DNA of 64,000 bases from Robiginitomaculum sp. Lineage in GTDB: Bacteria > Pseudomonadota > Alphaproteobacteria > Caulobacterales > Maricaulaceae. Numbering within the stretch: the stretch's first letter is position 1; each line of letters opens with the position of its first letter. The position numbers and the translations under genes were made by a program. The notes under the pieces are model-generated. The model did not search any database. It was not told where the DNA came from and saw nothing but the letters and a program-made list of their open reading frames with translations. The stretch covers positions 3,358-67,357 of the forward strand of contig JAJFFQ010000065.1 in assembly GCA_021776565.1 (NCBI GenBank), written 5' to 3'. Positions 2,832 to 64,000 of this stretch are shown piece after piece.

Positions 2832-3641
2832 ATGAACCCTGAAACGTATACACCGGAACATTTTTGCTGGGCCTTTGAGAACGGCATTGCCCGCATCACA
2901 CTAAATCGGCCCGCCCGCAAAAACCCGTTGACGTTCAGCTCTTACGCCGAACTGCGCGATCTGTTTCGGGCACTGGTTTATGACAAGGCCGTCAAAGCCA
3001 TTGTCTTTGGTAGCTCTGGGGGCAATTTCTGCTCTGGTGGTGATGTTCATGAAATCATCGCGCCACTGACCAAAATGGATATGTCGCAATTACTGGATTT
3101 CACCCGTATGACCGGCGATCTGGTCAAGGCCATGCGCGGCTGTCCACAACCCGTTATTGCCGCCGTGGACGGCGTTAGTGTTGGCGCGGGCGCGATAATT
3201 TCCATGGCCTCGGATTTACGTCTGGCCAGCAAGCAGGCCAAAACGGCGTTTCTGTTTAACCGGGTTGGCCTTGCAGGTTGTGATATGGGGGCGTGCGCCA
3301 TGCTGCCGCGCATTATTGGCCAGGGTCGTGCCAGCGAGTTATTACTGACCGGGCGCAGTTTCAGTGCGCAGGAAGGAGAACGATGGGGCTTTTTCAATGC
3401 CATTCATGACAGCGATGCGCTGGATGAAGCGGCCATGACATTGGCGCGGCGTCTGGCAGCGGGGCCAAATTTTGCCAATGGCATTACCAAAAACCAACTT
3501 AACATGGAATGGGATATGAGCCTGGACACGGCCATAGAAGCCGAGGCACAGGCTCAGGCAATTTGTATGCAAACCCAGGATTTTGAACGCGCCTATAAAG
3601 CTTTTGTTGCCAAAGAAAAACCGGTTTTCGAGGGCGATTGA
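2832..3641 (+). CDS. enoyl-CoA hydratase/isomerase (crotonase) family protein
   Basis: Crotonase-fold motifs are present ([21 protein letters not shown]). It has an ATG start and is divergent from iorA. Confidence 0.9.
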
Positions 3642-4813
3642 TGACTGACACAAGCTTCCTCACATGGCCGTTTTTTGAAGCTCATCATCTGGCATTGGCC
3701 AAAACCCTGGGTGAATGGGCGGCGCAGGAATTGCCCACCATTGTGGATTGCAAAACCGCCCATGACGATGTTGATGCCACTTGTCGAACTTTGGTGAGGG
3801 CATTGGGCGCAGGGGGTTGGTTGCGATATTGCGTTCCGGCCGCCTTTGGCGGTGTTCATGAGAGCCTGGATGTGCGCTCCTTGTGCATTATTCGCGAAAC
3901 CCTGGCGCGCCATTCCGGCCTTGCCGATTTTGCCTTTGCCATGCAGGGGCTTGGCTCTGGCGCTATTGGCATGTTTGGCACGCAGGCCCAAAAGCAAGCT
4001 TATTTGCCCGCCGTGGCAAGTGGTCAAAAAATTGCTGCCTTTGCCTTGACCGAACCAGGTGCCGGATCGGATGCGGCGGCCATGACCACTCGCCTTGAGG
4101 CAAAGGGTGAGGATTATCTGCTCAATGGTGAAAAAACCTATATTTCCAATGGTGGCATTGCCGATTTTTATACGCTTTTTGCCAAAACAGATGAGGGTGT
4201 CAGTGCGATCATCATTGATGCGGATACACCGGGGCTGGAGGTTGCAGAGCGACTGGAGGTGATGGCCCCGCACCCGCTGGCGCGGTTGACCTTCACCGAT
4301 TGCGTCATACCAGGAGCTAACCTTTTGGATGCGCAGGGGCGCGGCTTCAAAATTGCCCTGGCGACGCTGGATGTGTTTCGCACCAGTGTTGGCGCTGCGG
4401 CCCTCGGGTTTTCAAGGTGCGCACTGGATGAGGCGTTATCATACGCGCGCACACGTACCATGTTCGGCGCAACATTGGTGGATATGCCTATTGCGCAAGC
4501 CATGCTGGCCGAGATGGCGCTGGACGTTGATGCTTCGGCGCTGTTGATTTATCGTTCCGCCTGGATCAAGGATGTAAAAAAATTGCGCGTTACCCGTGAA
4601 GCGGCCATGGCAAAACTTTATGCCACCGACAGCGCCCAGATCGTGATAGACAAGGCTGTGCAGTTGTTGGGCGGTCTTGGGGTGACCAAAGGGCAAAAAG
4701 TTGAGGAATTATACCGGGAGGTCAGGGCGCTACGCATCTATGAAGGTGCGTCAGAGGTTCAAAAAATCGTTATCGCCCGCCAGCTTTTAACGCCATCAAA
4801 AAAGGAAGATTAA
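3641..4813 (+). CDS. acyl-CoA dehydrogenase family protein
   Basis: ACAD signatures are present ([32 protein letters not shown]). ATG 3641 overlaps the upstream TGA; the track start at 3638 is TTG. Confidence 0.9.
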
Positions 4814-4817
4814 CCTG

Positions 4818-5243
4818 ATGAGTTTTTTTACGGTTCCCGGCAAGGTGCGGTTTGGTCACACTGATTCTGCCGGAATTATTTTTTACCCGCGCTTTTTTGA
4901 AATACAAAATTCAGTGGTTGAAGACTGGTTTGATGACGTACTGGACAGCAGCTTTGCCGCCTTTCGCGAAACCTATGATCTGACCACGCCATTGGTGGAT
5001 GTCAGCACACAATTTTTAGTGCCGTGCCGACTTGGTGAGAAACTGGATGTTATGTTGGGGATCATTCATCTTGGACGGTCGTCTCTGGTTTTGCGTGTAA
5101 TGGCAGAGCGCGATGGTGAGACTTGTATTACCTCACGCGCGGTTCTGGTGTGTAGCAAAACAGATTTTACCGGCTCGGCCCCCTGGCCTGATGAAATTCG
5201 CAAACGTATGCAGTCCTTTCAGATTGAAGAGAGTGAAACGTGA
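4818..5243 (+). CDS. hotdog-fold acyl-CoA thioesterase (4HBT/YbgC-like)
   Basis: The N-terminal motif VRFGHTDSAGIIFYPRFFE is typical of 4HBT thioesterases. The protein is 141 aa. Confidence 0.75.
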   Translation: MSFFTVPGKVRFGHTDSAGIIFYPRFFEIQNSVVEDWFDDVLDSSFAAFRETYDLTTPLVDVSTQFLVPCRLGEKLDVMLGIIHLGRSSLVLRVMAERDGETCITSRAVLVCSKTDFTGSAPWPDEIRKRMQSFQIEESET

Positions 5244-5641
5244 AACAGGTATTGCAACCAAAAGGGTGGAAGCGCCCCAAAGGCTATGCCAACGGCATAG
5301 AGGCAGAGGGTCGTCTGGTTTTTACCGCCGGGATCATTGGCTGGAATGAACAAGAGCAATTTGAAACCGATGATCTGGTTGAACAAATCCGTCAGACCTT
5401 GGCGAACACCCTGGCGATATTGGCAGAGGCCGGTGCGACATCAGAGCATATTGTGCGGATGACCTGGTATGTTACTGATCGAGAGGACTATCAGAACCGG
5501 CAAAAAGAAATAGGTCAGGTCTGGAAAGCGGTTATCGGCAAGCAGTTTCCGTGCATGGCCTGTGTTCAGGTGCTGGCCCTGATGGAGGCGCGAGCAAAAA
5601 TAGAAATCGAAACCATCGCAATGGTGCCGCTAACGCAATAG
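5240..5641 (+). CDS. RidA/YjgF-family enamine/imine deaminase-like protein
   Basis: 133 aa with YjgF-like length and layout (GRLVFTAGIIGW...TWYV...ACVQV). Its GTG start overlaps the thioesterase stop as GTGA. Confidence 0.75.
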   Translation: MKQVLQPKGWKRPKGYANGIEAEGRLVFTAGIIGWNEQEQFETDDLVEQIRQTLANTLAILAEAGATSEHIVRMTWYVTDREDYQNRQKEIGQVWKAVIGKQFPCMACVQVLALMEARAKIEIETIAMVPLTQ

Positions 5642-5669
5642 CTGTCACAACAATCAACAGGGGCAGACA

Positions 5670-8015
5670 ATGAAAATCACAGTGATTGGCGGTGGGCCAG
5701 GCGGGCTTTATTTTGCCCTGTTGACCAAAAAGGCACGTCCAGATTTTGACATTGAGGTTTTTGAACAAAACCGGGCCGATGATACGTTTGGTTTTGGTGT
5801 GGTGTTTTCGGATGAGACCCTGGACGAATTCTTAAGCGCCGACCCGGCTTCCTATGAGATGATCCGTGACAGTTTTGCCCATTGGAGCGATATTGTTATT
5901 GAGCATGAGGGTCAGCGCACCATTGTTGGTGGTAACGGCTTTGCCGGTTGCTCGCGGCTTACCTTATTAAAAGTCCTGCAAACCCGATGCGAAGCGGTGG
6001 GTGTGAGCATCCACTATTCCACTCAGATTAACCCGGATGAGCTGACCACACGGTTTCCTGATTCTGACATTATTGTTGCCGCAGATGGCATTAACAGTGC
6101 CATTCGTGACAAGCACAAGGCCGAGTTTGGCATGCACACACAATTGCGGCCAAATCATTTTGTCTGGCTAGGATCCGCGCGGCCTCTGGATGCCTTCACG
6201 TTTTTCTTCAAAAAAACTGAACACGGCCATTTTTGCGCCCACACCTATCAGTATGAGGATGGTCGCTCGACCTGGGTGGTTGAAACCACGAAGGAATGTT
6301 GGCAAGCCAGTGGCTTTGCCGATATGGATGAGGCCGAGTGCGCGACTTATCTGGAGGGGGTATTTGCGGACGAACTTGATGGGCATGGCTTTATCACCAA
6401 TCGCTCGTTATGGCGTAATTTTCCAGTGATTACCTGTGATCGCTGGAATGCTGGCAATATCGTTTTGCTGGGCGATAACAAGGCCACGGCGCACTGGTCT
6501 ATTGGCTCAGGCACCAAGCTGGCCATGGAATGTGCCATAGGTTTATCAAAGGCGGTTTTGGATAATGCTGGACATGTTCCCGCCATTTTCGAGCAATACG
6601 AAAACACCCGGCGCACACCGGTGGAGATTACCCAGCATAATGCCGCCGTATCCTTGCGCTGGTTTGAAAATATGCCGCAGCATTGGGATAAATCGCAATA
6701 TGCTTTTGCGTTTTCCATTATGAGCCGGGCCAAATCCATCACCTGGGATAATCTGAAATTGCGCGATGCCAGTTTCCTTAATGCCGCAGAAGACGAATTT
6801 TACACGTGTTATAAAACACAAACCGGGCGCGATATGAGCATAGCCCGCCCAACACCCATGTTCACGCCGTTTGAGCTGCGCGGGTTGACCATCCCCAACC
6901 GTGTTGCGGTGGCCCCTATGGCTCAATATAGCGCGCAAAACGGGTGTCCGACTGATTGGCATTTCTCCCATTATACCGCCCGGGCGCTGGGCGGCGCGGG
7001 TCTGGTTTTTATGGAAATGACCTGCCCCAGTGCTGACGCGCGGATTACGGATGGTTGCACCGGGTTGTGGAATGAAAGTCAGGAGCACGAATGGGCGCGC
7101 ATCAATAACTTCATTCACCAGAACACCACAACAAAGATTGCTTTGCAGCTTGGCCATGCCGGGCGCAAAGGCTCAACCAAGCGCGGTTGGGAAGGCGCGG
7201 ATGAACCCAAGGATGAAAGTAACTGGTCGATTTATTCAGCCTCACCCATTGCCTATACCGAGGGGGTATCTGCGACACCAAAAGAGCTGAACCGCGATGA
7301 TATGGATCGCATACGTGATGAATTTGTCGCCGCCACGATCCGGGCAGATCGTGCAGGATTTGATATGCTGGAACTGCATTGCGCTCACGGATATTTGCTG
7401 GCCAGTTTCCTCTCGCCCCTGACCAATACCCGCACCGATGACTATGGTGGCCCGGCCAAAGCGCGGGTCAAATTCCCGCTGGAGATTTTTGTCGCCATGC
7501 GTGCAGTCTGGCCCCAAAACAAGCCCATATCAGTGCGTCTGTCGTCCTCGGACTGGGCCAGAGGCGGTCTGACACTGGATGATTTGAAAGTTATATCGCT
7601 GGCATTCAAAAATGCTGGCGTAGACATCATTCATGCCTCATCTGGCCAGACGGTGCCGTGGCAAAAACCGGTTTATGGGCGCATGTGGCAAACCCCGTTT
7701 GCGGAATATATTCGCCAAGAAGTGGGTATTCCGACCATTGCTGTGGGCGATATAACCCTGCCAGAGCAGATCAATACCATTATCGCTGATGGTCGTGCAG
7801 ACCTGTGCGCTCTGGCGCGACCGCATCTGAATAATCCAAACTTCACCCGCCAGGCAGCCGGGCATTATGCCATGCACGATCAGAACTGGCCGCCGCAATA
7901 CGAAACCGGGGAGTATCAGCTTTACCGTGAAGCCGAGAAAGTAAGTGAAAAGGCGCTTGATCTGGCCCTAAAAGCGCGCCCCAATCGCCGCCATTATCAA
8001 CGTGCGGTGAAATAG
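5670..8015 (+). CDS. bifunctional FAD monooxygenase / Old-Yellow-Enzyme reductase (2-aminobenzoyl-CoA monooxygenase/reductase or salicylyl-CoA 5-hydroxylase family)
   Basis: 781 aa. The N-terminus has an FAD GxGxxG motif (MKITVIGGGPGGLYFA) in a PHBH-like monooxygenase. The C-terminal half is an OYE-type NADH:flavin oxidoreductase (NRVAVAPMAQYSA, LELHCAHGYLLASFLSP). This fusion architecture is characteristic of the named family. Confidence 0.85.
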   Translation: MKITVIGGGPGGLYFALLTKKARPDFDIEVFEQNRADDTFGFGVVFSDETLDEFLSADPASYEMIRDSFAHWSDIVIEHEGQRTIVGGNGFAGCSRLTLLKVLQTRCEAVGVSIHYSTQINPDELTTRFPDSDIIVAADGINSAIRDKHKAEFGMHTQLRPNHFVWLGSARPLDAFTFFFKKTEHGHFCAHTYQYEDGRSTWVVETTKECWQASGFADMDEAECATYLEGVFADELDGHGFITNRSLWRNFPVITCDRWNAGNIVLLGDNKATAHWSIGSGTKLAMECAIGLSKAVLDNAGHVPAIFEQYENTRRTPVEITQHNAAVSLRWFENMPQHWDKSQYAFAFSIMSRAKSITWDNLKLRDASFLNAAEDEFYTCYKTQTGRDMSIARPTPMFTPFELRGLTIPNRVAVAPMAQYSAQNGCPTDWHFSHYTARALGGAGLVFMEMTCPSADARITDGCTGLWNESQEHEWARINNFIHQNTTTKIALQLGHAGRKGSTKRGWEGADEPKDESNWSIYSASPIAYTEGVSATPKELNRDDMDRIRDEFVAATIRADRAGFDMLELHCAHGYLLASFLSPLTNTRTDDYGGPAKARVKFPLEIFVAMRAVWPQNKPISVRLSSSDWARGGLTLDDLKVISLAFKNAGVDIIHASSGQTVPWQKPVYGRMWQTPFAEYIRQEVGIPTIAVGDITLPEQINTIIADGRADLCALARPHLNNPNFTRQAAGHYAMHDQNWPPQYETGEYQLYREAEKVSEKALDLALKARPNRRHYQRAVK

Positions 8016-8019
8016 TGGA

Positions 8020-8050
8020 GATTTCTTCTCCCTAAGGGAGAAGGGGAAAT
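8020..8050. terminator. bidirectional hairpin between convergent genes
   Basis: gatttCTTCTCCCtaaGGGAGAAGgggaaatc forms an 8-bp GC-rich core stem with AT extensions, lying between the stop at 8015 (+) and the stop at 8051 (-). Confidence 0.5.
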
Positions 8051-9199
8051 CTAGGCCAACAGCGTGCGGTTCTTTTCCAGCGCCGCCAACACCACCTCAA
8101 TGTCATCCATATTGTTATAAAAATGTGCGGATACCCGCAGGTTTCCATCCCGGCAAGAGGTGATAATATGCTCTGCCTCAAGGGCGGCAACCAGTTGATG
8201 ATCGTCTGTGCTGCGGATGGCCACCATAGGGCCGTGGTGCGTGTCTTTGACAGGGCTGGCCAGTGAACCGCCTAGGGCCACCACGCCTTTTTTAAGCGCC
8301 GCATTGAGTGCCATGACATGCGCCCGGATGCTCGCAACACCGACATTCAAAACATAGTCCAGCCCGGCCTCGGCGGCGTAAAGTGCAGGCACACTGGGCG
8401 TACCTTGCTCAAACCGCCGGGCATTGGGTGCTGGCTCATTAGCATGAATTTTCATGGCATGAATATCGGCCTGGGCGAACCAGCCGGTTTGCAAGGGATA
8501 CAGGCTTTCTATGAGTACCTCGCGGACATACAAAAACCCGATACCGGCACTGCCGAGCAGGTATTTCAACGCGCCGCCAATGGCAAAATCCACATCCAGA
8601 TCACGCACATCAAAGGGTACCGCGCCAAGCCCCTGATACCCGTCAACCAGCATTAACGCCCCTGCATCATGAGCGATTTTACAAATCGCAGCGATATCGT
8701 TCAAGGCACCATGGCGATAACAAACCAGCGGTACCGCGACCAGTAGTGTGCGCTCGTCCACCAGTTCAGCTAAATGTTCAAGATCAAGCTGACCGTCATC
8801 TTGTTCGCGGGCATGGACAACATCACCGCCGCGCGCGGTTTGTGCGTGCCAGTTTTGTGCCTCGGTCGGAAACGCCTGATCGGTAGTTACCACGCGGTTG
8901 CGTTTGCCGGAAAAATCAAAACTGCTGATAAGGCTGCTCAATGCCGCCGAAGCTGATGTGGTCACAGCCATTTCGTCTGTCTTTGCGCCGACAAGTTGTG
9001 CAAAGCGTTCCCGCACTCTTTCATGGCGCTCAACCCAGCCCATCCAGTCTGCGCCGCGTGCGTTGCGACAGGAAAGGTATGCACCATATGAGGCTTCAAC
9101 CTGATGGGACAATGCCCCATAGGCGCATGAGTTTATGTAGTGTGTGTGCGTGAATATAGGGAAGTCACGGCGATAATTCTGCATATCTGGCTCACTCAT
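8051..9199 (-). CDS. class V-fold PLP-dependent enzyme (aminotransferase / desulfurase / epimerase-like)
   Basis: Class-V fold motifs are present (LVDGYQGLGAVPFDV, GGALKYLLGSAGIGFLYV with a candidate PLP lysine). I chose ATG 9199 (MSEPDMQNY) because it overlaps the upstream transporter stop as ATGA. Confidence 0.8.
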   Translation of the reverse strand: MSEPDMQNYRRDFPIFTHTHYINSCAYGALSHQVEASYGAYLSCRNARGADWMGWVERHERVRERFAQLVGAKTDEMAVTTSASAALSSLISSFDFSGKRNRVVTTDQAFPTEAQNWHAQTARGGDVVHAREQDDGQLDLEHLAELVDERTLLVAVPLVCYRHGALNDIAAICKIAHDAGALMLVDGYQGLGAVPFDVRDLDVDFAIGGALKYLLGSAGIGFLYVREVLIESLYPLQTGWFAQADIHAMKIHANEPAPNARRFEQGTPSVPALYAAEAGLDYVLNVGVASIRAHVMALNAALKKGVVALGGSLASPVKDTHHGPMVAIRSTDDHQLVAALEAEHIITSCRDGNLRVSAHFYNNMDDIEVVLAALEKNRTLLA

Positions 9200-10552: not shown

Positions 10553-11641
10553 CTAGTAATTGATTGCCGGGCTGCCGGCGGGATAAAACGCACCCATCAG
10601 ACGTAGCCCATTAGGGTCAGTACATTCCAGAGAGTGTCCCTGACGTTTGCTCAGGAATATCACATCGCCCGGCTTTACCGGCGCCCGGCAATGTTCCGTC
10701 CACATCATTCCCTCCCCGGAAAGAATAACGATGGCTTCCTCATAAAGATGGCGGTGAAACGCGGCGCGGGACAAGGGAACTTCGCCAATAAACTGGGTGA
10801 TTTGCCTGGAGCCAACCAGATCATCCACCAATACCTGAAAAAAACGATCGGCCATGACATTGGCTTTTTCATTATCGACGCCAACCCGGCGCTCGGCAAA
10901 TTTACGATCAAACCGGCTATCAGGGCCATTTGGGGGGGCATCGGGCCAACTCATCGTGCCGTTATGGGGGCAAATTGCCGCCATGATTGTCATGCTTGTT
11001 TCTGCCTGAATTTGAAATGCTTCGCCCGATTTCACATAAATGCCGGTCTCTGGCCCGACTTTAAATATCTTACCTTCTATGTTGATATGCCCGTTACCGG
11101 AGATCACAAACAGCACCGTGTCGCTGTCCTCATGGCGTCGCCAGGGCGAAATTCCGGGGTTTGCAAGCATGCGCAAAAGGCCGAGATGTTTTGCCCCGTG
11201 TCTGGCCCCGATCAGGGTTTGACAAGCCAGTGTGCCGTTATGTTCATCTTGCGCCGGGTCAGGCGTTAGCACATAGGCGCCACCGTCCAGTATGGCCTTG
11301 CCGCCGCTTTTGGGATCACGCTCGACCAGTTTGGCATCGCTCATGGTCGCGATTTCATCTGCGCTGGCTTCTTCATAGGTGTCTTGAAGATTGTTGTGCG
11401 CCCCATCGCAAAAGGGGCCAGCGCGGGTGCGCTTGCAGGCACATAAAAGTACATCTTCGGATTTGTCGGCAACAAACATTAACGGCGTAAACTTTGTTCC
11501 CGCATGAGAGCCATCGCAAAAGGGTTGCTTTTTGCTGCGCCCGCATGAGCACCAGAAATACCGCTTGCCTTCTTCCAGCGAAACAAGACATGGCTTGTAC
11601 GCCGCGATAACTGGTTCATTATTTTTAATATCACTGGTCAT
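10553..11641 (-). CDS. fusion protein: two CDGSH iron-sulfur motifs followed by a bicupin
   Basis: CSCGRSKKQPFCDGSH and CACKRTRAGPFCDGAH lie in the first ~85 aa. Two cupin barrels follow; the second carries an HxH...E metal motif (AAFHRHLYEEAIVILSGEG ... GDVIFLSKRQGHSLEC). Confidence 0.75.
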   Translation of the reverse strand: MTSDIKNNEPVIAAYKPCLVSLEEGKRYFWCSCGRSKKQPFCDGSHAGTKFTPLMFVADKSEDVLLCACKRTRAGPFCDGAHNNLQDTYEEASADEIATMSDAKLVERDPKSGGKAILDGGAYVLTPDPAQDEHNGTLACQTLIGARHGAKHLGLLRMLANPGISPWRRHEDSDTVLFVISGNGHINIEGKIFKVGPETGIYVKSGEAFQIQAETSMTIMAAICPHNGTMSWPDAPPNGPDSRFDRKFAERRVGVDNEKANVMADRFFQVLVDDLVGSRQITQFIGEVPLSRAAFHRHLYEEAIVILSGEGMMWTEHCRAPVKPGDVIFLSKRQGHSLECTDPNGLRLMGAFYPAGSPAINY

Positions 11642-57786: not shown

Positions 57787-58233
57787 ATGGGCAGTTTATC
57801 AGAACCTGTTGCTGCGGGTGGATTTCAACTTTCGGCGCGATCAAAAGAACGCCTGGCCGGTGTGCATATGGATCTGGCCCGGATTGTGCGCCGCGCACTG
57901 GCTTTCAGTCCGGTGGATTTCACCGTCCTTGAAGGTCGGCGCACGGACGAGCGTCAGCAATTGCTTTACCAGAGCGGCGCAACGCGCACGTTAAACTCGC
58001 GCCATCTTAGCGGCCATGCGGTGGATTTGGGCGCTTGGATTGGTGGTGCTGTGCGCTGGGATTGGCCGTTATACGAAAAAATTGCCCATGCCATGCAAAT
58101 GGCGGCGGCAGAACAGGATGTATCTATTGAATGGGGCGGGGATTGGCGAAGTTTTCGCGACGGGCCGCATTTTCAACTGCCCTGGAAGGATTATCCTGTC
58201 TCCCGGCAGGCTCAGGATAAGGAGACCATATAA
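57787..58233 (+). CDS. M15-family zinc peptidase (phage-type endolysin, no signal peptide)
   Basis: SRHLSGHAVDL (HxxxxxxD) and DGPHFQL are zinc-ligand motifs of M15 / VanY-like cell-wall peptidases. Confidence 0.8.
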   Translation: MGSLSEPVAAGGFQLSARSKERLAGVHMDLARIVRRALAFSPVDFTVLEGRRTDERQQLLYQSGATRTLNSRHLSGHAVDLGAWIGGAVRWDWPLYEKIAHAMQMAAAEQDVSIEWGGDWRSFRDGPHFQLPWKDYPVSRQAQDKETI

Positions 58234-58628
58234 TGGGTCTTTTGAGCACCATTATTGGCCCGATTGCAGGGATTATCGACAAAGCCGTGCCGGATGCCGA
58301 TTTGCGTCGCCAGCTTAAACAAGAGATCAAGGCCAAGCTGATCGATCAGGAAACCGTGCTGACCCAGGCGGCGCGCGATGTACTGGTGGCCGAGGCACAA
58401 GGGACAAGCTGGATGCAGCGCAACTGGCGACCCCTGACCATGCTGACCTTTACCGCGATCATTGCCAATAATTATCTGATCGCGCCCTATGTTCAGGCCT
58501 TTGGCGGCATTGCTGTGGTGCTCGATATTCCTGATGGCATGTGGAATTTACTGACCATGGGTCTTGGCGGCTATGTCATTGGCCGCACGCTGGAAAAAAC
58601 CGGTAGCCGGTTCCGGGTTGGGGGTTGA
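58233..58628 (+). CDS. 3-TM holin (GTA-type holin family)
   Basis: TAATG overlap with the peptidase gene. The motif AEAQGTSWMQRNWRPLTMLTF is followed by TM segments, resembling the 'holin of 3TMs for gene-transfer release' family. Confidence 0.7.
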   Translation: MGLLSTIIGPIAGIIDKAVPDADLRRQLKQEIKAKLIDQETVLTQAARDVLVAEAQGTSWMQRNWRPLTMLTFTAIIANNYLIAPYVQAFGGIAVVLDIPDGMWNLLTMGLGGYVIGRTLEKTGSRFRVGG

Positions 58629-58638
58629 CGCGCCCCTC

Positions 58639-60216
58639 CTACAAATATGTTCCGGGGCAATCGGGATCATCATGATAGAGACAAGCATTGGCCAGGCTTT
58701 CATCACAATACGCGCACAAGGCCTTGGGGTGTGGCTGGGTGATGGTGTCATTTTCTATACGAAAACCCTGAGCACGGAATTTTTTCAAAGTTCGGGAAAA
58801 TGTTTCCGGCGTCATGTCCAGATATGATGCGATCAGGGATTTGTCATAGGGTAGGCGAATGGAGGTTGTATTTTCGCTGCCTTCCTCAATACCCAGTTTC
58901 AACAGATACCAGCCAACACGTTCAGCGGCATTTCTAAGCCGTGAGTGTTCGATCTGCTGGATCAGGTTTTGCGAACGCATGGAAAGATTGCCGATCATGT
59001 TTAGTGCGAAAGCGTTATTGTCCTGCAATACCTGGCGCACCACCGGGGCGGGCAGGGATAAAAGAACAGTTTTCTCGACCACCTGGGCGCTGGCTGCTGA
59101 TGGGATATTCAACAAAATCGCCGCTTCCATAATGCTGTCACCGGCAGAGAGCATTTGCAGCACTGCTTCATCGCCTGCGCCTGAACCCTTGAACAGCTTC
59201 ACCCACCCTGAGAGGATCAAGTAGAAGCGTGACAATGGTTCCGATTGCAAAAACAGCAATTTGCCTTTTTCATAGTCTTGCACATTGGCGTGCGCGAGCA
59301 AGGAACCCAGTTCTTTCTCTTCCAGTTTTGAAAACGCCGGTAGCGCCCGAATCAGCGGCATGTGCCGCTCCAGAGCGTTGGAAACGGCTATGGGACTAGT
59401 GGTATGTGCTGTTAGGTCAGAAGCGCCGGTTAAATGGCTGGCAAGTTCAATCTCGACAAGTTTCAGGCGCTCCACTTTTCCACTCAGCAATTCAAACCAG
59501 GTGACCGGAGAGATATTTTCCAGTTCTTTGGTGTTATCTTCACTGGCCAGCATGGTATGAATGTCTTCGACGAATTGCATGACATAACCGGATGTAACTT
59601 TTTCAACCAACTGGCGCTGTGATGGTGATGCCAGTGATAAAAACGACCGTTTATAGGCACCTTGCTCATCAATCAAAGTGAGCATGCGTTCGGTAAACTC
59701 GCGGTTTTTGAACACCTGATTGCAAAACCCGTGTATGCCCCATGCCCGCTCCCGGCCCACGCGTTCTTTCCATTGCAACAAGTTGGCATACGCTGTTGCA
59801 CGGGTTGGTTCTTTGCTGGCGATGTGCAGGGCAATTTCAATCTGGACATCGAGAATCGGGCTTAACGCGGAATAAGTATAGTAATTGGTCGATCTGGCGA
59901 AAGAGATTTCAAAGCGATCCACTTGTCCTCGTTGTTTTTGCAAATTTTGCGTAACATCAAGAATATCCTGCACCTTTTGCAGGGTTGCCGTCCCGATGCC
60001 GGTAGCCAGGGCCGGGTTTTTGCTGACATTGTTTAAGGCGCTGGCCGCACGGTTGGTGGCTTTGCGGTGCTGAGACAACTGGTCAGGATAAATCTCGCCA
60101 TCACTATCAATAAACAAGGCGGTGCAGCCGCGCTCCAATTGCAGATGATGGGCCAGCTCGCCCAGCGCCAATAACGCTGAAACGGTTACCGGTTCGAGTG
60201 TGACTTTGCTGTCCAT
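58639..60216 (-). CDS. fusion regulator: NIT (nitrate/nitrite-sensing) domain + cNMP-binding-type domain + Crp/Fnr HTH + C-terminal 4-Cys tail
   Basis: NIT signature blocks ELAHHLQLERGCTALFIDSDG and LLQWKERVGRERAWGIHGF. Effector barrel LFLQSEPLSRFYLILSGWVKLF. HTH SLIASYLDMTPETFSRTLKKFRAQG. Tail CAYC-x7-C-x7-C. ATG 60216; the track start is TTG. Confidence 0.8.
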   Translation of the reverse strand: MDSKVTLEPVTVSALLALGELAHHLQLERGCTALFIDSDGEIYPDQLSQHRKATNRAASALNNVSKNPALATGIGTATLQKVQDILDVTQNLQKQRGQVDRFEISFARSTNYYTYSALSPILDVQIEIALHIASKEPTRATAYANLLQWKERVGRERAWGIHGFCNQVFKNREFTERMLTLIDEQGAYKRSFLSLASPSQRQLVEKVTSGYVMQFVEDIHTMLASEDNTKELENISPVTWFELLSGKVERLKLVEIELASHLTGASDLTAHTTSPIAVSNALERHMPLIRALPAFSKLEEKELGSLLAHANVQDYEKGKLLFLQSEPLSRFYLILSGWVKLFKGSGAGDEAVLQMLSAGDSIMEAAILLNIPSAASAQVVEKTVLLSLPAPVVRQVLQDNNAFALNMIGNLSMRSQNLIQQIEHSRLRNAAERVGWYLLKLGIEEGSENTTSIRLPYDKSLIASYLDMTPETFSRTLKKFRAQGFRIENDTITQPHPKALCAYCDESLANACLYHDDPDCPGTYL

Positions 60217-60404
60217 AGTGCCCGCTCGTCTTCCCAAAACCAGACAGAGTTCAGAATATAGTCGAATTGCCTCAAATGCTTCGGCCTACTCCAATGGCAC
60301 ACTCTCATAGACCGGCATGGTATGCCAAGACAATGTCTGTCATTTCTGTCTTGAAAGAGAAGGAGTGAGACAAATTGACCCGGTTCAGTTTACCAACTCA
60401 AAAC

Positions 60405-60418
60405 TTGATGTAGGTCAA
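60405..60418. promoter_or_regulatory. Fnr/Dnr/Crp-type box upstream of narK(1)
   Basis: TTGATgtagGTCAA (consensus TTGAT-N4-ATCAA), 73 nt upstream of ATG 60491 in the divergent intergenic region. Confidence 0.5.
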
Positions 60419-60490
60419 TCCCGCCTTCACCAATACTGCGTAGAGACGCTGTGATTTGAAAAGTCGTTTTGGTTTTTGGAGGGCAGAACA

Positions 60491-61966
60491 ATGGAATTAC
60501 AAAACAAGGCCACCAGTCTTTGGGGTGATTTTTTACGTGTTGATAAAATACAGATCAGAACTTTCCACGTAACGTGGTTTGCGTTCTTTTTGTGTTTCTT
60601 TGCCTGGTTTGGCATTGCGCCTTTGATGGCGGTTGTCCGTGAAGAATTATCACTGACCAAAGAGCAAGTTGGCTGGACAATCATCGGGGCCGTCTCGGCA
60701 ACGGTGTTTGCCCGGATATTGATCGGCTGGTTATGTGACCATTATGGCCCAAGACTGACCTATACATGGTTGTTGGTTCTGGCCTCCTTGCCGGTTATGG
60801 GTATCGGACTTGCCCAGGACTATACAACCTTCCTGATTTTCAGAATTTTAATCGGGGTGATCGGCGCCAGCTTTGTCATTACCCAATATCATACAACCAA
60901 TATGTTTGCGCCCAATGTGGTTGGGCAGGCCAATGCGACCAGCGCCGGTTGGGGCAATTTGGGCGGCGGTGTCACCCAGTTTGCCATGCCAATGATCTTC
61001 TCTATCTTTGTTATTGGATTTGGCATGAACGCAGCCTTTGGCTGGCGTGCCTCAATGGTTGTTGCCGGTGCGGTGATTTTAGTGACCGGTATTGTCTATT
61101 ACGTCTTTACCCAGGATGCCCCGGACGGCAGTTATAAGGACTTACGCGCCCAGGGCAAAATGGCACCTAGAAATCAAACCACAGGAAATTTCTTTCACGC
61201 CCTGAAGGATTACAGGGTGTGGATGTTGTTTTTCATCTATGCCGCATGTTTTGGTATCGAGCTAACCATCTTTGGAACGCTGGCTCTGTATTTCTTTGAT
61301 TATTTTGGCCTTAACCTGGTGACCGCTGGTGTGGTTGCGGCAAGCTTTGGTTTGATGAACATTTTTGCCCGTACACTGGGCGGCATATTCGGTGACAATT
61401 TTGCCTCGCTCTGGGGTTTGAAAGGCCGGGCAACATGGTTGTTCATTGCGCTCTTCATTGAGGGTCTGGCCCTGATGCTGTTCTCACAAATGCATGTTCT
61501 GTTTCTGGCCATCCCAACCCTGTTGTTCTTCTCACTGTTTACCCAGATGTCTGAAGGTGCAACGTTTTCGGTGGTTCCCTTTATTTCCAAAAAATCATTG
61601 GGGGCAGTTGCCGGTGTTGTCGGTGCCGGCGGTAATGTTGGCGCGGTTGCGGCGGGTTTCCTGTTCAAGGGCGAGATGGATTGGCATACGTCATATCTTA
61701 TTCTTGGTGCTTTGGTGACCGGTGCTTCTTTCCTGGCTTTGCTGGTTCGCTTTAGCAAGGCAGATGAAATTGAAGCAGAAGAGCGGTTTGACTCTGGCTT
61801 CACCCGCCACAGAAAAGAGGCGGCCCGAAAACACCTTGAAGTCCTGGGGATGGCGTCTGAAGAAATTGACAAGGTCAAGGTCTTTGGCAGTCGCGAAGCT
61901 CATGCGTTCAAACGCCTGGAAGCCCTTGGGGTTGATATGAGTAGTGTGAAGTTAAAAGCCGAATAA
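60491..61966 (+). CDS. narK: MFS nitrate/nitrite transporter (NarK/NasA family) with a hydrophilic C-terminal extension
   Basis: FHVTWFAFFLCFFAWFGIAPLM and GWGNLGGG are NNP-family motifs. GGAGGG SD lies before ATG 60491. Confidence 0.9.
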   Translation: MELQNKATSLWGDFLRVDKIQIRTFHVTWFAFFLCFFAWFGIAPLMAVVREELSLTKEQVGWTIIGAVSATVFARILIGWLCDHYGPRLTYTWLLVLASLPVMGIGLAQDYTTFLIFRILIGVIGASFVITQYHTTNMFAPNVVGQANATSAGWGNLGGGVTQFAMPMIFSIFVIGFGMNAAFGWRASMVVAGAVILVTGIVYYVFTQDAPDGSYKDLRAQGKMAPRNQTTGNFFHALKDYRVWMLFFIYAACFGIELTIFGTLALYFFDYFGLNLVTAGVVAASFGLMNIFARTLGGIFGDNFASLWGLKGRATWLFIALFIEGLALMLFSQMHVLFLAIPTLLFFSLFTQMSEGATFSVVPFISKKSLGAVAGVVGAGGNVGAVAAGFLFKGEMDWHTSYLILGALVTGASFLALLVRFSKADEIEAEERFDSGFTRHRKEAARKHLEVLGMASEEIDKVKVFGSREAHAFKRLEALGVDMSSVKLKAE

Positions 61967-61992
61967 ACATCTGGCACACAACAATGAAAAAT

Positions 61993-62014
61993 GGGGGCTC
62001 TGCCCCCGTTTTTT
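61993..62014 (+). terminator. rho-independent terminator after narK(1)
   Basis: GGGGGC-tct-GCCCCC followed by GTTTTTT. Confidence 0.75.
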
Positions 62015-62076
62015 GATGCTGCCTTGGGCTTTGATTCTAAAAATGTGAACAAGGACGCACACAAAAAATATTATTT

Positions 62077-62090
62077 TTGATCTAGGTCAA
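62077..62090. promoter_or_regulatory. Fnr/Dnr/Crp-type box upstream of narK(2)
   Basis: TTGATctagGTCAA has the same half-sites as 60405-60418 and lies 92 nt upstream of ATG 62182. Confidence 0.5.
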
Positions 62091-62181: not shown

Positions 62182-63789
62182 ATGGCCAACGATCTTAAAC
62201 AATGGAACCCGGAAGACGAGACGGAATGGGCGTCGACCGGCAAGGCAATTGCCAATCGTAATTTGTGGATTTCCATACCGGCGCTTTTGTGTGGCTTTGC
62301 CGTGTGGCTCTATTGGGGCATTATCACGGTTCAGATGATAAATCTGGGCTATCCGTTTGCCAAATCCGAACTATTCACCCTGGCGGCCATTGCTGGCCTG
62401 ACCGGTGCAACTTTGCGGATACCTTCAACGTTTTTTATCCGCATTGCCGGTGGGCGGAACACCATCTTTTTTACCACCGCGTTACTGATACTGCCTGCGG
62501 CCGGAACCGGGATGCTGCTGCAAAATCCCGACACGCCGCTTTGGCAATTTCAACTGATGGCGCTGCTTTCCGGCTTTGGTGGCGGTAACTTCGCATCCTC
62601 GATGTCTAATATCAGCTTTTTCTTTCCCAAGAAAATGGCTGGCTATTCGCTGGGCATGAATGCAGGGCTTGGCAATTTTGGTGTTACCACCATGCAAATT
62701 CTGGTGCCTTTGGTGATGACCGCTGCCATTTTTGGCGGTGCGCCCATGGTGCTGGAAGCCACCTCTGGCACCTTGATCGGCAAAATTCCTGCTGGGACGG
62801 AAACCTATCTGCACAATGCCGGTTTCATCTGGGTTGTCATTCTGGTTCCCATCGTTCTTGCCGCCTGGTTTGGTATGAACAACATTACCGCTGACCATGT
62901 CTCGCCCAATATCGGATCACCGATTGGGGCGTTTGCTAAAATTACCGGCATGTTGCTTATCGGCTTTACCACGGCCATTTTTGGCCTGTGGTTGATGCTG
63001 CCGGCCGATGTAGGTGGTTCCGGCATGATGATTAGTAAATGGATTGTGCTGCCGATCGTGATTGCCCTGACGGTGTTTGCCTTAAAGCTTATTCCGGGTG
63101 CGATAAAAGACAGCCTCAACCACCAGTACAAAATCTTCAGTAACAAACACACCTGGGCAATGACGGTGATCTACACCATGACCTTTGGTTCCTTCATTGG
63201 TTATGCGGTGGCGTTTGGTCTTTCCATCAAGGTGGTTTTTGGTTTTCAGCACGTCATGGTTGACGGGGTGATGACTCATAACCTTGCCAACCCGGATGGC
63301 CCCAGCGCCCTGATGTTTGCCTGGACCGGGCCATTTATTGGCGCGCTTATTCGCCCTATTGGCGGCATGATTGCCGATAAAATGGGCGGTGCCAAAGTCA
63401 CCCAAATCATTTCCGTGGTCATGGTGGCTGCGGCGCTGGGTGTCGCCTATTACATGAAACTGGCCTATGGCTCGGCCACGCCGCAGGATTATTTCATGCC
63501 GTTTCTGGTATTGTTCCTGATCCTGTTTGCCGCAACCGGTATTGGTAATGGCTCTACCTTTCGCACCATCGCTTTTGTTTTTGACAAGGAACAGGCCGGG
63601 CCGGTTCTGGGCTGGACGTCTGCGGTTGCTGCATACGGTGCCTTTATCATTCCCAAAGTGTTTGGTGAACAGATCAAGGATACAACGCCGGAATATGCGC
63701 TCTATGGTTTTGCTGCCTTTTATGCACTTTGCATTTTGATAAACTGGTGGTTCTACCTTCGTAAAAACGCCTATGTGAAGAACCCGTAA
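62182..63789 (+). CDS. narK: MFS nitrate/nitrite antiporter (NarK2-type)
   Basis: AGGAGG SD. WISIPALLCGFAVWLYW, GGGNFASSM and GLGNFG are NNP motifs. Confidence 0.9.
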   Translation: MANDLKQWNPEDETEWASTGKAIANRNLWISIPALLCGFAVWLYWGIITVQMINLGYPFAKSELFTLAAIAGLTGATLRIPSTFFIRIAGGRNTIFFTTALLILPAAGTGMLLQNPDTPLWQFQLMALLSGFGGGNFASSMSNISFFFPKKMAGYSLGMNAGLGNFGVTTMQILVPLVMTAAIFGGAPMVLEATSGTLIGKIPAGTETYLHNAGFIWVVILVPIVLAAWFGMNNITADHVSPNIGSPIGAFAKITGMLLIGFTTAIFGLWLMLPADVGGSGMMISKWIVLPIVIALTVFALKLIPGAIKDSLNHQYKIFSNKHTWAMTVIYTMTFGSFIGYAVAFGLSIKVVFGFQHVMVDGVMTHNLANPDGPSALMFAWTGPFIGALIRPIGGMIADKMGGAKVTQIISVVMVAAALGVAYYMKLAYGSATPQDYFMPFLVLFLILFAATGIGNGSTFRTIAFVFDKEQAGPVLGWTSAVAAYGAFIIPKVFGEQIKDTTPEYALYGFAAFYALCILINWWFYLRKNAYVKNP

Positions 63790-63868: not shown

Positions 63869-64000
63869 ATGAGCAATTTTATCGACAGACTGACCTATTT
63901 CTCCAAGGTTGAAGGCAAGTTCTCCAACGGCCATGGCATTACCACCAGTGAGGCCAGAGACTGGGAAAAAGCCTATCGTGGGCGCTGGGCGCACGACAAG
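63869..64000 (+). CDS. narG: respiratory nitrate reductase alpha subunit (N-terminal fragment, runs off the window end)
   Basis: MSNFIDRLTYFSKVEGKFSNGHGITTSEARDWEKAYRGRWAHDK parallels the E. coli NarG N-terminus (MSKFLDRFRYFKQKGETFADGHG...RDWEDGYRQRWQHDK). Confidence 0.85.
   Translation, partial: MSNFIDRLTYFSKVEGKFSNGHGITTSEARDWEKAYRGRWAHDK

Follow-up and report, generated by a model that had tools for sequence, protein, structure and literature searches.

A NIT–Crp/Fnr fusion protein with a conserved cysteine tail as a candidate regulator of nitrate respiration in Robiginitomaculum

Within a 64,000-nucleotide stretch of Robiginitomaculum sp. DNA (assembly GCA_021776565.1, contig JAJFFQ010000065.1, positions 3,358 to 67,357; hereafter the window), we analysed a minus-strand gene at 58639–60216, including the stop codon, whose 525-amino-acid product joins an N-terminal NIT domain to a Crp/Fnr module ending in a four-cysteine tail. 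On balance, comparative analysis favours the reading that this protein would act as a cytoplasmic one-component Crp/Fnr activator dedicated to respiratory nitrate reduction, gated by nitrate or nitrite through the NIT domain and by oxygen or nitric oxide (NO) through a cysteine cluster. The initial annotation, made from the sequence without database searches, had proposed such a one-component regulator of the nar genes, and all the comparative evidence gathered here (domains, family, tail conservation, nar linkage and boxes) supports it. That proposal thus gains comparative backing and is refined in two respects: the tail is not specific to the fusion, and the ownership of the boxes is ambiguous.

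Domain architecture and extent of the family

The reading frame begins with a TTG codon and spans 58639–60237 (minus strand) in the list of open reading frames; the ATG at 60216 gives the 525-residue form, orthologue alignments begin at residue 1 of that form, and public data hold an identical protein (P0001). Using Pfam, we found three domains in the regulator (NIT, cNMP_binding and HTH_Crp_2), each exceeding its curated cut-off. Together with the tail, these bear out the four-part product described in the initial annotation, namely a NIT region with both signature blocks, a cNMP-type beta-barrel, a Crp/Fnr helix-turn-helix (HTH) and a CAYC-x7-C-x7-C ending.

The NIT domain covers residues 20–262 (59431–60159, minus strand), is cytoplasmic and all-helical, and matches PF08376 from model position 1 to 238 of 239 (E 5.1e-37; 129 bits, cut-off 24.9). 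A phmmer comparison with the NIT domain of Klebsiella oxytoca NasR (4AKK) gave E 1e-6 over 253 residues and aligned the signature motifs HHLQLERG (residues 23–30) and KERVGRERAWG (150–160) with HMLQCERG and KELAGQERALG, corresponding to the general forms HxLQxERG and KExxGxERAxG. The two motif arginines, R29 and R157, map to 4AKK chain positions 77 and 203, which would be NasR R50 and R176 if the crystallized construct carries a 27-residue tag; R50 and R176 are reportedly the arginines implicated in nitrate binding. R29 is kept in 45 and R157 in 44 of 50 distant family representatives, and members of as little as about 30% identity still have the NasR-like arginine motifs. The two NIT cysteines, Cys31 and Cys165, are not conserved among 113 aligned members. 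From these likenesses, the domain is likely to sense nitrate or nitrite.

The C-terminal half comprises a cNMP-binding-type beta-barrel sensor domain (residues 313–400, 59017–59280, minus strand; PF00027, 60.7 bits against 27.5), a long helix in the position of the Crp/Fnr dimerization helix according to AlphaFold2 and Foldseek (residues 401–427, 58936–59016, minus strand), and a DNA-binding HTH_Crp_2 domain (residues 432–502, 58711–58923, minus strand; PF13545, 44.5 bits against 27). Within the last, the recognition helix E471-T-F-S474-R475 (58792–58806, minus strand) carries the E--SR motif of FNR-type proteins, which reads TTGAT half-sites. E471, S474 and R475 are invariant both across 91 aligned members and in 50 of 50 distant representatives, and the motif is retained in the family down to about 30% identity. 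Pfam detected no ANTAR domain in the regulator; the output consists of cNMP_binding plus HTH_Crp_2.

An AlphaFold2 model built from a 91-sequence alignment (mean predicted local distance difference test (pLDDT) score 86, predicted template modelling score 0.73) resolves a helical NIT domain, a disordered linker, a beta-barrel, a long helix, the HTH and the tail. Helices extend across residues 10–260, with pLDDT mostly above 90, while the linker occupies residues 263–312 (59281–59430, minus strand), of which 266–275 are predicted to be disordered (pLDDT below 50). Searching the PDB with the full model using Foldseek returned Crp/Fnr proteins aligned to the C-terminal half only (query-normalized template modelling (TM)-score at most 0.38), with no full-length structural analogue and with NasR outside the top 50, so that the NIT assignment rests on the profile hidden Markov model and phmmer matches. 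For the C-terminal half, target-normalized TM-scores were 0.7–0.84 to CRP, GlxR and FNR structures. The nearest solved relatives of residues 281–490 are 3FX3/3H3Z, from Ruegeria pomeroyi structural genomics, and Pseudomonas aeruginosa DNR (3DKW), at E 1e-29 to 3e-27 and about 29% identity. Both are single-module proteins of about 230 residues without a NIT domain; DNR senses NO through haem, and no four-cysteine tail is aligned, the DNR and 3FX3 matches ending near query residues 484–490.

Three established identities were considered for the regulator and rejected. Canonical FNR fails on its NCBIfam score (34.7 bits against a cut-off of 228) and on the lack of the N-terminal cysteine motif, and FtrB on scores of 130.2 bits against 211 (NF006901) and 103.5 against 300 (NF050815). 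HcpR is an automatic label from one database source, and the gammaproteobacterial locus has no hcp context.

A word-indexed protein search with the regulator returned 229 relatives. Among the best 120 of these 229, nearly all were 510–550 residues long with all three Pfam domains, under generic names such as ‘hypothetical’, ‘nitrate- and nitrite sensing domain-containing’ or ‘CRP-like cAMP-binding’. Searched exhaustively with HMMER, a set of 1.84 billion representatives from clustering at 50% identity yielded 156 matches at E ≤ 1e-30; about 45 of 50 matches of 480–560 residues carry NIT, Crp/Fnr and tail, with identities as low as about 29%, and the family amounts to about 45–50 clusters at the 50% level. 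Robiginitomaculum metagenome-assembled genomes (MAGs) account for all nine of the closest genome loci, at 68–80% identity. Beyond these, the family occurs in marine Alphaproteobacteria (named sources being Robiginitomaculum, Henriciella, Methyloligella and Emcibacteraceae) and in some Gammaproteobacteria, including the sulfur-oxidizing gill symbiont of Bathymodiolus thermophilus (for example, AYQ57257.1).

The statement in the initial annotation that no characterized NIT-Crp/Fnr protein was known holds up: a full-text literature search turned up no paper describing the architecture, and the databases offer the generic names only. The regulon study of Rodionov 2005 mentions neither C-terminal cysteines nor NIT fusions, and the RedB network of similarities within the Crp/Fnr family was restricted to proteins of 190–280 residues, so that long fusions fall outside it (PMC9603854). 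The NIT–Crp/Fnr family is real and uncharacterized, a new combination of known modules that is reasonably widespread in marine nitrate reducers.

FNR-type boxes and linkage to nar genes

The regulator gene is divergent from narK1 (60491–61966, plus strand), which encodes a NarK-family major facilitator superfamily (MFS) nitrate/nitrite transporter matching Pfam MFS_1 and, at 294.7 bits, falling below the TIGR00886 cut-off of 311.7. A second transporter gene of NarK/NarU type, narK2 (62182–63789, plus strand), follows, with NCBIfam NarU and NarK family matches that are both below curated cut-offs. The 5′ end of narG, for the alpha subunit of respiratory nitrate reductase, comes next (63869–64000, plus strand) and runs off the window after its first 44 codons from about 63869. 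Its N-terminus, MSNFIDRLTYFSK..., was identified by translation (MSNFIDRLTYFSKVEGKFSNGHG...), and the same N-terminus heads a gene with a Pfam NarG domain at a more distant family locus (L011). These matches uphold the gene order given in the initial annotation. Its report of no narXL-type genes likewise holds among the roughly 20 other large open reading frames scanned in the window, which are housekeeping genes. A tblastn search of the 64 kb found no second Crp/Fnr gene.

Using a pattern scan, we located an FNR-type palindrome in the divergent spacer (box 1, TTGATGTAGGTCAA, 60405–60418, unstranded), centred 79.5 nucleotides upstream of the narK1 ATG and 195.5 upstream of the regulator ATG, and a second ahead of narK2 (box 2, TTGATCTAGGTCAA, 62077–62090, unstranded), centred 98.5 nucleotides upstream of its ATG. 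As the initial annotation had noted, both narK genes thus carry the same box, and these are exactly the two TTGA-N6-TCAA sites in the entire 64 kb (0.13 expected; at least two in 1 of 100 shuffles). Alignment with two Robiginitomaculum orthologous loci (L005 and L007) shows box 1 as a conserved island in an otherwise divergent spacer, and box 2 is likewise a conserved island, kept in L005, L007 and L008. Between narK1 and narK2 lies a GC-rich, terminator-like hairpin, GGGGGCTCTGCCCCC, followed by a T-run (61993–62015, plus strand); T-runs occur on both strands, and hairpin and T-run are kept in four orthologous loci. This conserved element suggests that narK1 is transcribed apart from narK2-narG, each unit with its own box.

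Two minor observations concern these promoters and the hairpin. By eye, the alignment has a conserved ‘TAnA’ at the −10 position expected of a class II promoter, which would put the centre of box 1 at about −41.5, a weak signal; a sigma-70 promoter scan of the region found sites no more frequent than in shuffles. The hairpin could also yield a 3′ untranslated region (UTR)-derived RNA, and such an RNA, NarS, has been reported from E. coli narK (cited in PMC8139620).

Linkage and box extend far beyond the genus. In all eight Robiginitomaculum loci with enough flank, the regulator and narK genes are divergently oriented. Scanning metagenomes with the family alignment yielded 80 loci at 31–67% identity, 59 of them non-redundant with no less than 1.5 kb of upstream sequence; in 49 of these 59 narK is the adjacent, divergent gene, in two it lies 3–5 kb upstream and in one downstream. 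All 49 divergent regulator/narK spacers contain an exact TTGA-N6-TCAA, nearly always as TTGAY-N4-RTCAA. Family loci totalling 736 kb hold 153 exact boxes where about 11 would be expected; the regulator/narK spacer accounts for 62 of the 153, and another 37 are found within 400 nucleotides past the regulator, ahead of moaA/moeA. At about 40% identity, L011 and L013 carry narH-narG-narK-narK divergent from the regulator and moaA, mobA, moeA and often nnrS downstream, an arrangement shared by L010 with a radical-SAM gene interposed. Even a gammaproteobacterial member at 30% identity (L097) has narJ-narH-narG-narK-narK divergent from the regulator. Given this pattern, the regulator quite probably controls the nar genes through candidate boxes 1 and 2.

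The transporter next to the regulator varies within the genus. In L001–L004 and L006 (about 4800–5750, minus strand) it is a different NarK-like MFS protein, 23–27% identical to narK1 of the window, while L008 has such a protein at 4765–5700 (minus strand) plus a narK1 orthologue. It thus appears that the cluster's first transporter has been swapped or duplicated, whereas narK2 stays more than 80% identical.

Some distant members have other neighbours. In L098, SCP2-U32-U32 genes resembling ubiT-ubiU-ubiV are divergent from the regulator and accompanied by nrdD with a radical-SAM partner; exact TTGAT-N4-ATCAA boxes stand ahead of both units (6452–8924 and 3599–5608). SCP2-U32-U32-like genes, judged from sequence only, also lie upstream on the same strand in L071 (392–2310) and L074 (483–2933). 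The ubiTUV genes, for O2-independent ubiquinone synthesis, and nrdDG are typical anaerobiosis targets. Boxed ubiTUV-like and nrdD units near distant members suggest that the family regulon would reach beyond nar in some lineages.

The cysteine tail and its stand-alone relatives

The tail spans residues 501–525 (58642–58716, minus strand) and is a putative metal or iron–sulfur (Fe–S) site. It has the form L-C501-x2-C504-D-x6-C512-x7-C520-P, with the cysteines spaced C501-A-Y-C504-x7-C512-x7-C520, and Cys31 and Cys165 are the only other cysteines of the protein. The tail noted in the initial annotation is close to invariant: C501, C504, C512 and C520 are each kept in 112–113 of 113 aligned members, and all four are present in 74 of 74 metagenome loci with a checkable C-terminus, two apparent exceptions carrying an x8 spacer. 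Among the 50 distant representatives, the first three cysteines occur in 45–46 and the fourth in 42, and the residue following C504 is mostly Asp. The tail, like the recognition helix, is retained down to about 30% identity, and pLDDT is 81–84 across residues 500–520.

Searching with residues 280–525 alone recovered stand-alone relatives. Crp/Fnr proteins of about 245–260 residues carry the same LCxFCD-x6-C-x7-CP(NP) tail at 45–55% identity, and a broader stand-alone group has a three-cysteine tail, CSACSSEFPC, at 35–40% identity. Representative loci are L016 (8001–8747; protein P0132), L014 (8001–8789; P0144) and L015 (8001–8777; P0150). The stand-alone Cys-tail relatives have no cysteines outside the tail, share the recognition helix PETFSRTLK with the regulator and fall below the FtrB equivalog cut-offs; the same box type is also found at their own promoters. 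P0132 (PHR92845.1, from a Robiginitomaculum MAG) is divergent from ccoNOQP-ccoGHIS, with TTGATCTAGATCAA between them, and a further stand-alone relative adjoins hemC and hemD. A position beside cco genes is the classical site, and cco the classical target, of the O2-responsive Fnr/FixK regulators of Alphaproteobacteria.

We looked in L014–L016 for a split version, in which a separate NIT gene sits beside a stand-alone Cys-tail regulator, and found none. The 262-residue, NIT-less P0144 (L014) nonetheless shares its neighbourhood with the NIT-bearing regulators of L065, L066 and L079, in the order Na+/H+ antiporter, fatty-acid desaturase, beta-carbonic anhydrase, regulator; these loci are without nar linkage. 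This common neighbourhood indicates that, within one lineage and at a single orthologous locus, the NIT domain has been gained or lost. The most fitting description of the fusion is a Cys-tail Fnr-like regulator to which a NIT domain would have been added. By the same comparison, the tail appears to be inherited from the stand-alone clade; it would be no novelty of the fusion and would not have arisen with the nitrate regulator.

These relatives bear on what the tail does. A cco-adjacent protein whose tail is shared with the fusion strengthens the case for an oxygen sensor holding an O2-labile Fe–S cluster of the kind found in Bacillus Fnr, and to judge from their sequences the stand-alone proteins look like Fnr proteins with a C-terminal cluster in Gram-negative bacteria. 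Between a redox-sensing Fe–S site and a structural zinc site, we give the former an even chance.

Proposed mechanism, alternatives and other features of the window

In the mechanism we propose, the protein would dimerize through its long helix and bind TTGAY-N4-RTCAA with its E--SR helix ahead of narK1 and narK2-narG; from the boxes, it would activate narK1 and narK2-narGHJI and, in most relatives, also the molybdenum-cofactor genes moaA/moeA. Cytoplasmic nitrate or nitrite bound by the NIT domain would lift an inhibitory contact from the Crp/Fnr module, in the manner proposed for NasR, and, as NarK under the control of the regulator would import these ligands, a positive-feedback loop would result. 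The CxxC-x7-C-x7-C tail may hold an O2- or NO-labile Fe–S cluster like that of Bacillus Fnr, restricting DNA binding to low oxygen; this step is suggested by the cco, hem, ubiTUV-like and nrdD neighbourhoods of the relatives and by the Bacillus precedent. A single polypeptide would then form an AND gate for ‘nitrate present’ and ‘oxygen low’. In its fullest form, in which a NasR-like NIT domain and a Bacillus-Fnr-like Fe–S cluster in one chain replace the FNR–NarXL or FnrP–NarR pairs and C-terminal-cluster Fnr proteins make up a widespread, unrecognized clade of marine Proteobacteria, the proposal is tentative, and we rate it at somewhat less than an even chance.

Each part of this scheme has a known counterpart. 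NasR, the paradigm of NIT–ANTAR proteins (PMC12591593), shares with the regulator a cytoplasmic N-terminal NIT domain, the same two arginine motifs and a one-component design, with sensor and nucleic-acid-binding output joined in one chain by a flexible linker. The sequence similarity of the two NIT domains is low (E ~1e-6), and the outputs differ, being an RNA-binding ANTAR antiterminator in NasR and a DNA-binding Crp/Fnr module with Cys tail here; NasR controls genes of nitrate metabolism (assimilatory nas), whereas the predicted target of the regulator is respiratory nar.

In Paracoccus, nar is induced by FnrP upon anoxia and by NarR in response to nitrate or nitrite, NarR lacking an Fe–S cluster, and in Alphaproteobacteria this Fnr-type protein functionally replaces the NarXL nitrate sensor (review PMC8139620). 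The regulator and NarR of P. pantotrophus and P. denitrificans are thus both alphaproteobacterial Crp/Fnr proteins in the role of NarXL; NarR is of normal length, without NIT domain or Fe–S cysteines, whereas the regulator has both a NIT domain and a Cys cluster. Its gene adjoins narK, as expected of NarR, although the Cys cluster sets it apart. The narR gene itself reportedly adjoins narK in divergent orientation (Wood et al. 2001), and we know of no established mechanism of nitrate sensing by Paracoccus NarR.

Bacillus Fnr holds an O2-labile [4Fe-4S] cluster ligated by a C-terminal Cys extension (PMC3520743; PMC12937710), an arrangement that a 2026 review treats as a Gram-positive trait (PMC12937710). 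The Fnr proteins of B. subtilis and B. cereus resemble the regulator in that a Cys-rich extension directly follows the HTH, that an N-terminal Cys motif of FNR type is missing and that there is a link to narK and nar regulation; the regulator differs in its proteobacterial host, its added NIT domain and the putative status of its site. FNR proper (E. coli and A. fischeri) ligates its [4Fe-4S] cluster with three cysteines near the N-terminus and one in the barrel, a motif absent from the regulator, while E. coli FNR and the regulator have in common the E--SR helix and a TTGAT-N4-ATCAA-like box. E. coli FNR with NarXL and Staphylococcus NreABC embody the same logic as proposed here, nar requiring both low O2 and nitrate, but divide the inputs among two to three proteins, namely FNR and NarX/NarL in E. 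coli, and the Fe–S kinase NreB, the nitrate receptor NreA and NreC in Staphylococcus. The regulator would unite both putative sensors and the DNA-binding output in one polypeptide.

Several observations weigh against a nitrate- and oxygen-gated nar activator. A NIT domain does not guarantee a nitrate ligand: the one in PA4520, a P. aeruginosa chemoreceptor, failed to bind either nitrate or nitrite in vitro (PMC6381276). The CxxC...C...C spacing of the tail also fits a structural zinc site and is unlike the C-x2-C-x4-C plus Asp ligands of Bacillus Fnr. DNR, a haem-based NO sensor, is the nearest characterized solved homologue of the barrel, which points to a possible third input. Seven of the 59 metagenome loci have no nar gene, and about eight have none upstream within 6 kb, one of these having narK downstream. 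L012 and L013 have no exact box, the L013 spacer holding one with a single mismatch, and in L097 the CRP-like GTGA-N6-TCAC site GTGATTTATATCAC (about 8969–8982) replaces TTGA-N6-TCAA despite the conserved E--SR motif. Finally, recognition helix and box type are shared by the stand-alone relatives, which hence could occupy the nar boxes in place of the fusion or together with it, so that the owner of these boxes is ambiguous from sequence alone and their assignment to the NIT protein is an inference. As an observation on L097 itself, a locus similar to that of the Bathymodiolus symbiont, its regulator/narK spacer is very short, and GTGATTTATATCAC could mean either a shifted specificity or a mis-called start codon.

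These points lend themselves to three other explanations. The protein could be a nitrate-only analogue of NarR whose tail is a structural zinc site, with oxygen control left to a separate Fnr-type protein at the same or nearby boxes, as with FnrP and NarR in Paracoccus. The tail spacing is frequent among zinc-binding sites and departs from the Bacillus ligands, the same genus has a cco-adjacent stand-alone relative that could sense O2, and Paracoccus nar does use two separate Fnr-type proteins (PMC8139620). However, the only cysteines of that stand-alone relative are those of the tail, so that if it is an O2 sensor the tail must do the sensing, and the NIT protein shares that tail; moreover, the few distant members that replace or lack the fourth cysteine are compatible with Fe–S sites of three Cys plus Asp, which tolerate this, and less expected of a Zn(Cys)4 site. 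We therefore regard the zinc explanation as unlikely, though the least so of the three.

A regulator of NO or nitrosative stress, of the DNR/NnrR/HcpR type, would sense nitrite-derived NO through barrel haem or nitrosylation of the Cys cluster, with the NIT domain modulating the response or sensing nitrite, and would govern a regulon of nar, nnrS and molybdenum-cofactor genes. The DNR match to the Crp module (E 3e-27), the position of nnrS directly downstream in several loci, the ‘HcpR’ name of the gammaproteobacterial member in one database source and the reactivity of Fnr-type Fe–S clusters with NO (FnrP paper, PMC4771820) would all suit it. Yet the conserved neighbours are genes of nitrate import and reduction rather than nir, nor or hcp, DNR-type proteins need neither NIT domain nor Cys tail, and the HcpR label is automatic, with no hcp gene near the L097 regulator; we consider this improbable. 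More improbable still is that the nar boxes are ordinary Fnr/FixK sites of another Crp/Fnr protein, while the fusion binds other DNA or represses or anti-activates, through heterodimers or site competition with a stand-alone relative. In their recognition helices the fusion and the stand-alone relatives hardly differ, the box type recurs at cco and at the promoters of the relatives, and Fnr boxes ahead of narK are frequent in bacteria without a NIT-Crp/Fnr protein; but the identical E--SR helix equally predicts that the fusion binds the same box type, and a box in the divergent spacer of the regulator itself in 49 of 49 loci, with a second conserved one past the regulator before moaA/moeA, is the usual pattern of a local regulator.

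If the dual-input nar activator is correct, nitrate and oxygen would be sensed by one protein, a task for which E. coli has two separate systems. The family offers a testable answer to how Alphaproteobacteria without NarXL sense nitrate, namely a sensor domain fused to an Fnr-type activator, for many marine nitrate reducers. Among Crp/Fnr regulators it would be the first for which use of an added N-terminal sensor domain is shown, and no earlier proteobacterial Fnr may have had a metal cluster at its C-terminus. Its hosts are relevant to the marine nitrogen cycle: besides the Bathymodiolus gill symbiont, they include Robiginitomaculum and further Hyphomonadaceae-like bacteria from metagenomes of marine and vent origin. 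Biosensor design could likewise profit from a compact sensor that possibly responds to both nitrate and O2 and has a defined 14-bp operator.

Two further features of the window stand apart from the regulator. Between methylmalonyl-CoA mutase genes and the regulator, and at the same position in L007, lies a Peptidase_M15_4 endolysin-like gene (57787–58233, plus strand) that overlaps the start of a GTA_holin_3TM gene (58233–58628, plus strand); the pair resembles a lysis cassette of the gene-transfer-agent type, with no other phage genes nearby. At 10553–11641 (minus strand), between a gene for an SNF-family transporter and aminotransferase/kynureninase-type genes, a 362-residue protein combines two zf-CDGSH iron–sulfur motifs with two Cupin_2 domains, an unusual fusion.

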